A DNA stretch of 64,000 nucleotides from positions 146,887-210,886 of the forward strand of contig CAZSVP010000002.1 of NCBI GenBank assembly GCA_964610335.1. Direction: 5' to 3'. Origin of the DNA: an uncultured Candidatus Saccharibacteria bacterium (GTDB lineage: Bacteria > Patescibacteriota > Saccharimonadia > CAILAD01 > BJGX01). Shown here in pieces: positions 1,645-4,600 of the stretch. Each line of letters starts with the position of its first letter. The first letter of the stretch is position 1. The position numbers were made by a program.

Positions 1645-4600
1645 TTACAATGTATTTGGTAAATATTGGTAGTAACGCAGATAGCAGTAAGCCATTGATC
1701 AGATTTATCAACAACTCATTTGTTTGAACGATTGGAACAAGTAGAAGTAATTGGATTATCAAGCCACTAGCAAACAGTACAGTAAATATTACTAACATAA
1801 GGCTCCCAAACAGTCGCCAAAATCTTTTTTTGGAAAGACCTAGGCTAATCCGAGCAGCTTGAAATACACTTACGTTTTGATCCACTACTGCTATACCTGT
1901 TAAGCTTAGCCGTACCAAGAAGTAAACAAAAAACGCAGCAACCAGCAAAGCTAGTAATGCCAGTAGTGGCCAAGGACCAACCTGTTGTCCAACCACAAGT
2001 ATGGCAATGCTTATACTCATCATAGTGGGTACAAATAACACAGTAAGAAGTATTAATACACCGATTATCCTAAGAAAATGTGTGCTTGCTTGATTGTATA
2101 TGGCTGACAACTTGAGTTGTAAGTTTTTATCGTCAAGGCTCACAACTATCAATGCAATCATAAGAAATAGACCAGCCACCGAACCCACAATCGACAAATC
2201 AACTGTGACTTGAGTACGGAGTAAACTAATTGGAATAGCCACAATCGCTGTTAACAAGAATATCTTTCCGAAGTGAGTTTTCAGCCACTTACTACTACGT
2301 CCTAGTGTTCGGAACGAATGCAGTTTGATTTTCTTAAAAGGCTTTTTGGAAGTATTTTTTTTCGTTATTTTCTTAGCCATGAATCCCCCTTTTATGGTTT
2401 TATGTTCATTTCACGCAATTTCTTAATCCGCTCACTAGTAGGTGGATGGGTACTAAACAGACTAGAGAACCAGCCTCGCGTGTCACTCTTCACATTCTCA
2501 CGCAAGGGGTTGATAATATACAAGTTCTCGGTGGCACGATTGGCTGCCTCAAGTGGCTCAGTATCGGCATCGATCTTCTCAAGTGCGCTAGCGAGACCCT
2601 CCGGGTAGCGTGTAAGCATGGCTCCGCTAGCATCGGCCAGGTATTCTCGCTTACGACTCACAGCGAGCTGAAACATCATGCCTATGATGGGCGCAAGAAT
2701 CGCAAAAACTATACCTATCCCTAGCATTATGAGCTGTAAATTGCTATCACCACCGCTATCGTCATCGCCAAATATACTTATGCGCAAGAACCAATCACTT
2801 AACAGAATAACGATACTAACCAACATAACAACCAGAGTCATCATGCGCACGTCGTAATTTCCAATGTGGCTTAGCTCATGAGCAATCACTCCCTGTAACT
2901 CTGTCTTATCCAGTTTGTCTAGTAGGCCCGTAGTCACACATACCATTGCATGCTGCGGATCGCGACCAGTGGCAAAAGCATTGGGCGCTGTGTCTTCGAT
3001 GATATATATCTTAGGAGTGGGTATACCAGCAGTAATTGCTAAGTTCTCGACCGTCCGATATAGAGTAGGGTTGTCTTTTTTTGCGATCGATTTAGCCTGG
3101 CTAGCTGCTAGTACCATGTTGCTGCTATAGAAGTAGCTTATGAAGGCATAAAACAATGAAAAGCCAACACCTATATAGAGTATTACTTGGTTGTTGAAAG
3201 CCAAGCTAAACACCCAGCAGAGCAAAGCAATCATAATAACAAAGCCAGTAATTAAGAACCAGCTATTGCGCTTGTTTTTGGCAATCTCGGTATACATAGT
3301 TAGAAAAGTAGGAAGTTATAAGTATAAAGTAGTAAGTATTCAGCAGTTTCCAGATTCTCCAAATTCCTGCCATTTTACCTAATACTTAATCTTAATTATA
3401 CCTGATAATAACTCTCAATAGAAGCCGCATGATATTGACTATTGATGATAATTATTGTAGAATGTGACTGATTCGTACCTGGTCACTAGAACCTGGGAGG
3501 TTGATATGACCAACAAGAATAGCATGCGTTACGCGGTGTACATGATCCGTGCACGCTCGAGCTTCCGCAACCCTGGGGGAGAAGCACCACCGGTCTTGAG
3601 CCCTTCGGTCACACCCGTTCCGGGCCTCGAAGCGTCCTCGTTGTCAGAGCTGCTGGAGGAGTTCGGTGACTGGTTGCACCAGTACCGGCCGGAGGCCAGC
3701 GACGGATTCGACATCCGAGTCCGTGCCTACATCGGCGACACCGACGAGTGGCTGCGCGACGACTGGGTGCCAGCAACTCTCACCACCAAGTTCCACGAGT
3801 TCCAGGGCAACTTGAGCTGTTTCAAACAGCTCGATCCTGTGGCTCTGGCTTGGGCGGCCGGTGACAATGGCGCAGAGGTGGCCAAGTGAGTATCACAGCC
3901 CCCACTCTCCACCCTACTCGTCTGATCGTGACGGTGCGCGAGCAAGGCTTCGAACCGGCTCAGCTAGCACCAATGAGCTTGGGCGACATGACAACCCCTG
4001 ACATCAAGGGGCTGACCATCGAACAAGCCTCGAAGTTGTTGGGTATCGATCTGCCTGAGCGCGGCAGTGCCGGCAAGCAGCTCAGCTACCGAGTCGAGAT
4101 CTTCGAGGCCGGCAGCTGGAGCACATCACTCTGGCTCGGCAACAGCGAGGAAGGAGCCGCCTACATGCGTGATCCCATCGGTTGGCTCGCCGACCATGGC
4201 CACGCCGATCCCTACGCTGCCATGGAGGACGAGTGATGTCGGACACCGAGATGAGCAGCGAAGAGTGCATCGAGCCACATCCATTCGAGGAGGGCGACGG
4301 CTACGGCTGCGCCATCTGCCAAGGCGACCCCGGCGACGAAGTACACTCCCAATACTGGGAGTGATTCGAGGAGTAGATCCTCACACACCCCAAGCCCATC
4401 TACGAAAGAAGCCCACGCTTTTGCAGGTGGGCTTCTTTCGTAGTTTATGCTAATAATGATTCTAAAGATGAAATGCCTGGTTTCAGTAACAAGGCGAAGG
4501 TTAATTCTGATTAGTAAAGTCCAAGGAAGCCTTGAGAACTGGAGTGAGACGTAGTATACCTACGTTGAACGAAGCCCGAAAAGGCTGACGCAGAAATTTG

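Follow-up and report, generated by a model that had tools for sequence, protein, structure and literature searches.

A GC-rich orphan operon of apparently foreign origin between lemA and htpX in a narrow lineage of Candidatus Saccharibacteria

What is a compact set of three small GC-rich genes doing between lemA and htpX in a low-GC genome of Candidatus Saccharibacteria, and where did it come from? The genes, called A1, A2 and A3 here and together the cassette, lie in a stretch of 64,000 nucleotides (the window) from contig CAZSVP010000002.1 of an uncultured member of this group (assembly GCA_964610335.1, positions 146,887 to 210,886). A preliminary description, made from this sequence, had presented them as a translationally coupled operon with a hairpin leader and a terminator, which could be assigned to no family but might be a toxin-antitoxin-like or phage-derived module. 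It had also pointed out that the reading frames might be artefacts of GC-rich DNA. The analysis reported here leads us to a different picture, to which we give a probability of about 0.55: that the cassette is a laterally acquired and self-contained operon, long fixed in one narrow Candidatus Saccharibacteria lineage, and that its products are binder-like or inhibitor-like proteins. The features of the locus are listed in Table 1.

Table 1. Features of the cassette and its two neighbouring genes, numbered from the first letter of the window.
Feature	Position	Strand	Remarks
GC-rich foreign segment (putative)	3454-4456	.	58-65% GC
Sigma-70-type promoter TTGACT-17-TAGAAT	3435-3463	+	promoter scan, 10/12 matches
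5' leader	3464-3505	+	3472-3505 nearly invariant, including the Shine-Dalgarno sequence GGGAGG (3495-3500)
Two-helix RNA hairpin, 33 nt	3480-3512	+	UGGUCA/UGACCA and AACCU/AGGUU; putative translational gate for A1
A1	3506-3889	+	ATG start; 127 amino acids; isoelectric point (pI) 4.8; orphan; sole gene found in all cassette variants
A2	3886-4236	+	GTG start within the GTGA overlap; 116 amino acids; pI 4.6; orphan; C-terminal half nearly invariant
A3	4236-4364	+	ATG start; 42 amino acids; charge about -12; core HPFEEGDGxGCAICxGDPGDExHxQYWE
Intrinsic terminator	4400-4416 / 4427-4443	.	perfect 17-bp inverted repeat, 10-nt loop
htpX (M48 peptidase), left flank	2392-3297	-	divergent from the cassette; Pfam PF01435, E = 7.5e-36
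lemA, right flank	4604-5173	-	Pfam PF04011, E = 6.3e-56

Positions 3435-4443 of the window form a self-standing transcription unit in which three coupled genes lie between a promoter and a strong terminator. The gene coordinates given in the preliminary description are exact, as are the overlaps, which are 4 nt between A1 and A2 (GTGA) and 1 nt between A2 and A3 (TGATG). Each start has a Shine-Dalgarno sequence that can be read directly from the DNA. That of A1 is GGGAGG, that of A2 is GAGGTGG and falls within the end of A1, and that of A3 is GGAGGA and falls within the final codons of A2. The overlap between A1 and A2 is GTGA across the alleles and is swapped for TGATG in one type (L003), so that the coupling is preserved in either case. 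The overlaps, the co-conservation of the genes and the GC content all agree with the view that this is one compact, GC-rich and translationally coupled unit. Some gene callers start A1 at the GTG at 3464, giving a protein of 141 amino acids; we consider this version implausible, since its start abuts the -10 hexamer. In the window, A3 has lost its last four codons relative to the L010 allele (which ends ..YWERFEE) through a change of CGA to TGA, and the ancestral stop TAG is found at 4374-4376.

Homologous loci were taken from independent assemblies, giving six distinct alleles that could be compared. The pairwise ratio of nonsynonymous to synonymous divergence (dN/dS) among them is 0.12-0.32 for A1, 0.16-0.34 for A2 and 0.15-0.20 for A3, a pattern which indicates that purifying selection acts on all three genes. 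In every allele the GC content of the named frames is highest at the third codon position and lowest at the second (GC3 > GC1 > GC2). Across the alleles only the A1 and A2 frames remain open with a constant extent, while the alternative open reading frames (ORFs) shift from allele to allele. The dN/dS values, the GC3 pattern and the constancy of the frames together rule out the random high-GC ORFs that the preliminary description had named as its own possible undoing. On this evidence the cassette is a genuine, selected and lineage-restricted orphan operon. Its proteins evolve much faster than those of its surroundings, with dN values of 0.05-0.23 for the cassette against 0.005-0.04 for the flanks.

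The control elements have been kept as well. The promoter proposed earlier is found in its expected place, and both its TTGACT hexamer and a -10 hexamer of the form TAsAAT (where s is C or G) are retained in all seven aligned loci; the 17-nt spacer between them has diverged. Nucleotide diversity reaches the minimum for the whole locus, 0.017, at 3465-3494 within the leader, and the leader sequence occurs once in the window. The leader hairpin of the preliminary description (GTGAC...GTCAC, 3464-3486) did not stand up: it folds no better than shuffled sequences (z = -1.19), and its 5' arm is disrupted in two loci (L009 and L024) with no compensating change. The better candidate is the two-helix hairpin of Table 1, in which the UGGUCA/UGACCA helix spans the AUG and codon 2 of A1, and the AACCU/AGGUU helix spans part of the Shine-Dalgarno sequence. 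This hairpin pairs fully in 6/6 distinct alleles. Its single variable pair has undergone a compensatory change from U-A to C-G in the L010/L024 lineage, where a U in the leader has become C and codon 2 has changed from ACC to GCC. The hairpin folds at -11.5 to -13.6 kcal/mol (z about -2.4), compared with -6.4 and -10.9 kcal/mol for the single mutants. That the hairpin sequesters the Shine-Dalgarno sequence and the AUG of A1 is best taken as a lead, not as proof.

At the other end of the unit, the terminator stem had been described as 12 bp long, and is in fact the longer perfect inverted repeat listed in Table 1. Seven loci retain it, and its folding energy is -39.5 kcal/mol (z = -7.8). On either strand the hairpin leads into a U-rich stretch, and attenuator-like Rfam matches below the threshold lie over it on both strands. 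The repeat is probably a bidirectional terminator, which would also halt lemA transcripts before they run antisense through the cassette. The region 4392-4443 permits two mutually exclusive 17-bp hairpins, 4392-4408/4418-4434 and 4400-4416/4427-4443, because the sequence AAGCCCA occurs twice; RNAalifold on the alignment favours the first of these, and the fold of the single sequence favours the second.

The composition of the cassette sets it clearly apart. Its GC content compares with 34-45% in the immediate flanks, a mean of 45.7% over the window and about 44% for the genome. Similarly, GC3 is 0.73-0.79 for A1-A3 in the window and 0.65-0.79 over all alleles, against 0.46-0.54 for lemA and htpX. 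A foreign origin is therefore supported, by composition only, and GC3 values of 0.65-0.79 after such divergence would fit a partial amelioration from a donor that was GC-richer still. The high-GC donor was probably an actinobacterial host or a phage, again with composition as the sole basis. Genes of high GC content or actinobacterial type, acquired laterally, are a known phenomenon in the genomes of Saccharibacteria (TM7). The cassette resembles such transfers from host to epibiont in that it is a GC-rich island within a TM7 genome of low GC content, and other islands, one of them with a 69%-GC purH, lie in the same window. It differs from them in that A1-A3 have no actinobacterial or other donor homologue in the databases searched: the protein searches and the search of GTDB species genomes gave no homologues outside the Saccharibacteria locus, and hence no closest relatives in a donor clade.

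The insertion site can be reconstructed from related genomes. HtpX finds its best genomic matches in metagenome-assembled genomes of Candidatus Saccharibacteria, at 60-64% identity, and in five of these relatives (L016-L019 and L021) the site is empty: the two genes share a strand, and lemA lies upstream of htpX at a distance of 66-185 bp. Since lemA and htpX are adjacent in these relatives, the cassette can be read as having entered a tight gene pair, to which it runs antiparallel. A further three relatives have unrelated genes in the spacer between lemA and htpX, all of them antiparallel to lemA and htpX. These are genes for an HD-domain protein with a RelA/SpoT-like motif and for membrane proteins in L014 (3005-5001) and L015 (1372-3658), and an unrelated orphan in L022 (1558-2193). 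Given that unrelated genes occupy the same spot, the spacer looks like a permissive and recurrent insertion site. A search for flanking inverted repeats or target-site duplications around the cassette found none that was convincing.

The cassette is not a recent arrival, and the searches place it at this site only. In a search of 5.8 billion proteins, A1, A2 and A3 each gave four clusters and nothing else, with no paralogues or mobile copies of the family, and within the window there are no cassette paralogues and no second copy of its promoter or leader. Independent metagenome contigs that bear the cassette were fetched from Logan, ENA, NCBI and JGI, and in 23/23 of them (L001-L013, L023-L029 and those of L026 type) the order is htpX, cassette, lemA. 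Synonymous divergence (dS) between the window and L003/L004 is 0.92 for lemA and 0.96 for htpX, and 0.82 for A1 and 0.43 for A2; between the window and L009, htpX is saturated, and A1 and A2 are at 0.93 and 0.74. Overall, dS runs from 0.9 to saturation in the flanks, compared with 0.25-1.07 in the cassette. The flanks have diverged as much as the cassette or more, which implies that the insertion is older than the split of these lineages and has since been passed down together with the chromosome. The pattern of divergence thus points to an old cassette that descends vertically while recombining to some extent between strains. There are signs of such recombination in two comparisons. Between the window and L002, A1 is identical and A2 has two synonymous changes at its extreme end, and the two loci differ in the presence of A3 and in the terminator sequence; between the window and L011, dS is higher for A1 (0.50) than for lemA (0.16).

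A related observation concerns A2, for which dS is 2-6 times lower than for A1 in the same genome pairs. Over codons 61-100 of A2 (window 4066-4185) synonymous diversity is 0.04-0.19, compared with 0.25-0.5 over most of A1, and it is low relative to the flanks too. Neither a stable RNA fold nor an Rfam family was found in this part of A2. The low synonymous diversity of A2 may reflect recombination between lineages or a constraint at the nucleotide level.

The gene content of the cassette varies in nature. The full order A1-A2-A3 is found in the window and in L001, L009, L010, L024 and L025, and A1-A2 with no A3 in L002-L008, L011 and L026-L029. In L023 the order is A1-A1'-A3, where A1' is a paralogue of A1 (40% identical, E = 2e-27) with an A2-type tail, DPYAAVEAE. 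Strains with identical A1 and A2 proteins can differ in whether they have A3. When co-occurrence is examined, as the preliminary description had proposed, A1 and A2 are found together in every locus that carries the family except L023. From these arrangements it appears that A1 is constant, that the second slot is exchangeable, and that A3 is optional. An exchangeable slot and an optional third gene are difficult to square with an obligate toxin-antitoxin pair, and fit better with an array of proteins that act independently.

All three products are acidic (net charges of -6, -9 and -12 for A1, A2 and A3, the pI of A3 being 4.05) and hydrophilic, with no membrane, signal or hydrophobic segments. 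Searches of Pfam, PHROGs, PADLOC and NCBIfam with A1, A2, A3 and their diverged alleles gave nothing below E = 0.09. A sequence profile search of the PDB gave only noise (haloalkane dehalogenase at E = 0.39, transketolase at E = 0.6). In tblastn searches against phages and plasmids there was no match to A1 or A2, and A3, compared with phages only, gave noise at E >= 3. Scans of viral contigs found no relative of A1-A3, and nothing was found by a scan of GTDB species genomes or by scans of JGI metagenome contigs using a protein pattern and the leader DNA. A HMMER profile search with A2 against 1.84 billion representatives returned its own family and two eukaryotic repeat proteins, an FN3-repeat phosphatase and a Sushi-repeat protein. 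These two are spurious, as they score 4-12 bits per repeat, with a total that is summed over near-identical repeats. A kinship between A1 and A2 was also considered and rejected, since hhalign finds them unrelated. AlphaFold2 models from shallow alignments have mean confidence scores (pLDDT) of 59 and 61, which are low. The earlier opinion that no family can be assigned thus holds after library and profile searches and structure modelling, and within the range of these searches A1, A2 and A3 are orphans that represent new protein families.

A3 has one CxxC (C-A-I-C) and two invariant histidines that are conserved across the alignment, and it has no Pfam match. These residues could form a His/Cys metal knuckle. 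Zinc-ribbon and rubredoxin-like proteins have two CxxC knuckles or four conserved metal ligands, to which the single CxxC and the two histidines of A3 may be compared.

In the reading that we prefer, DNA from a high-GC donor would have been inserted antiparallel into the short spacer that leads from lemA to htpX. The cassette would be transcribed from its own strong promoter of host type, and transcription would end at the strong hairpin, which would also insulate it from lemA read-through. By burying both the AUG and the Shine-Dalgarno sequence of A1, the RNA hairpin in the leader may throttle translation of this gene. A2 and A3 would then be made by translational coupling, as their starts overlap the upstream stop and have their own Shine-Dalgarno sequence inside the preceding gene. 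The products are small and acidic and are predicted to be soluble and non-enzymatic, and they might work stoichiometrically, binding or inhibiting other proteins that are probably basic or that bind nucleic acids. The set would be immunity-like or anti-effector-like, drawn from the gene pool of an actinobacterial host or a phage, and not a poison-antidote pair. We have low confidence in the binder or inhibitor role, which is suggested by analogy.

Four points weigh against this reading. The support for the hairpin consists of one compensatory event, and the same count is reached in 85/500 shuffles. A donor homologue was not found anywhere searched, so that an actinobacterial or phage origin is argued from composition only. 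The binder or inhibitor role is deduced from negatives (no catalytic motifs, acidity and modularity), with no positive match. Finally, only about six distinct alleles were available for comparison.

Among known systems, orphan immunity and interbacterial-defence arrays and the anti-defence (anti-CRISPR) operons offer a parallel to the reading given above. The cassette is like them in encoding small, acidic, cytoplasmic orphans, in its variable content, which includes tandem paralogues, in its strong promoter and in its lateral origin. It is unlike them in that neither a cognate toxin, nor a known immunity or anti-CRISPR (Acr) family, nor a helix-turn-helix (HTH) regulator of the Aca type was found, and the likeness should be read as an analogy only. 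The cassette also shares several features with phage morons, in that it has its own promoter and terminator, a deviant composition, a position between genes that lie side by side in relatives, and small unassigned proteins. In contrast to a moron, it lies outside any recognisable prophage, flanked by the chromosomal housekeeping genes lemA, htpX, ligA and gatCAB, and it is old and vertical rather than sporadic.

The genomes of Saccharibacteria are tiny, and the cells live attached to Actinobacteria. Genome reduction and attachment to a host mean that genes kept under selection are candidates for the symbiosis itself. A bolder form of the proposal is that the operon was captured from a high-GC host or phage and has been kept as a host-interaction or immunity module, gated by an RNA switch, that neutralises effectors of the host or of competitors. 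We regard this as rather unlikely; if true, it would make A1, A2 and A3 the founders of new families that neutralise host-derived or competitor-derived effectors. In any case the cassette offers a clean example of apparently foreign DNA, complete with promoter and terminator, that holds three new families and varies naturally in gene content, and it is a possible entry point to what epibionts borrow from their hosts. As an orphan accessory operon it is mechanistically unsurprising so far, and lateral acquisition by TM7 is already known.

Several alternatives need to be weighed. The first is that the cassette is a type II or three-component toxin-antitoxin system, with A1 as the antitoxin, A2 as the toxin and A3 as an accessory or chaperone-like component, autoregulated at the leader. 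The layout is indeed much like that of a type II system: two or three compact, overlapping and co-transcribed small genes share one promoter and one terminator, and the leader next to the promoter is strongly conserved and could be an operator. The order, with the antitoxin first, and the sizes of the genes are compatible with this, and the loss of A2 in L023, where A1 is kept, would be tolerable if A2 were the toxin. However, no toxin or antitoxin family is matched in Pfam, PADLOC or NCBIfam, and none of the alleles shows a DNA-binding domain of the HTH, ribbon-helix-helix (RHH), AbrB or Phd type in Pfam or NCBIfam at E <= 1. The supposed toxin A2 is acidic (pI 4.6), as are the other products, and the leader has no conserved palindromic operator. 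Toxin-antitoxin systems are typically patchy and multi-copy, whereas this family is at one fixed chromosomal site, with no paralogues and no mobile copies. Nor is the pairing obligate, as L023 has A1, a paralogue of A1 and A3 but no A2; the second gene is replaceable and the third comes and goes. The toxin-antitoxin-like character suggested at the outset is thus not borne out, and we consider such a system improbable.

A second alternative would make the cassette an accessory set of regulators or adaptors for HtpX or LemA, the products of the two membrane-stress genes beside it, controlled together with htpX from the shared divergent region of about 210 bp. It is true that the cassette always lies between lemA and htpX, and that its promoter is back-to-back with the region upstream of htpX, which also contains invariant blocks. 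Against this, the composition of the cassette is foreign, its products have no membrane segments, and the unrelated genes found at the same spot in other Saccharibacteria suggest a permissive site and not a functional link. An adaptor role is, in our view, distinctly unlikely.

The divergent region upstream of htpX has a feature of its own. Invariant blocks (ATTATACCTGATAA and GAAGC) occur at 3389-3430 of the window, and the reverse complement of this segment contains TATAAT. This is possibly a promoter for htpX, which would have been needed once the cassette had split htpX from lemA.

The third alternative, an undescribed defence or counter-defence module directed at phages or plasmids, would be suggested by a small, variable and laterally acquired cassette with one component that is present or absent according to strain. 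The A1 dS of 0.50 against 0.16 for the flank in one pair, and the presence of a strain-variable recombinase element 1.4 kb away, would point in the same direction. On the other hand, there is no PADLOC match at E <= 1 and no nuclease, NTPase or other effector domain, and dN/dS is well below 1. The recombinase element also proves not to be linked to the cassette: in L026, window position 5812 is joined straight to 12388, and the cassette is still present. We therefore give this alternative a low likelihood.

The least tenable alternative, which we find exceedingly improbable, is that the cassette is a functionless leftover from past DNA uptake with open frames that are a by-product of high GC content: there are many alternative ORFs on both strands, and no homologues were found outside the lineage, but all three frames are under purifying selection, the alternative frames are not conserved, and the start/stop overlaps, Shine-Dalgarno sequences, promoter hexamers and terminator have been kept despite saturating divergence of the flanks, so that this alternative is largely refuted already.

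The recombinase element just mentioned is a strain-variable segment at 5813-12387, beside a tRNA-Gly gene. It contains a large serine recombinase (5801-7312), two orphan ORFs, a KsgA-like methyltransferase, a GNAT protein and an AAA_33/zeta-like kinase.

The window contains four further GC-rich islands (56-70% GC), at 14411-14972, 45289-46239, 53182-53822 and 61410-63893, none of which is related to A1-A3. In the first three are orphan ORFs that match nothing in Pfam, these being of 173 amino acids on the minus strand, of 237 amino acids on the minus strand, and a group of overlapping ORFs of 112-141 amino acids, respectively. The fourth holds an orphan of 193 amino acids and a purH gene with 69% GC (62296-63840). 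The best solved relative of this PurH is PDB 3zzm, a mycobacterial PurH, with a score of 390 bits; the next scores 304 bits.

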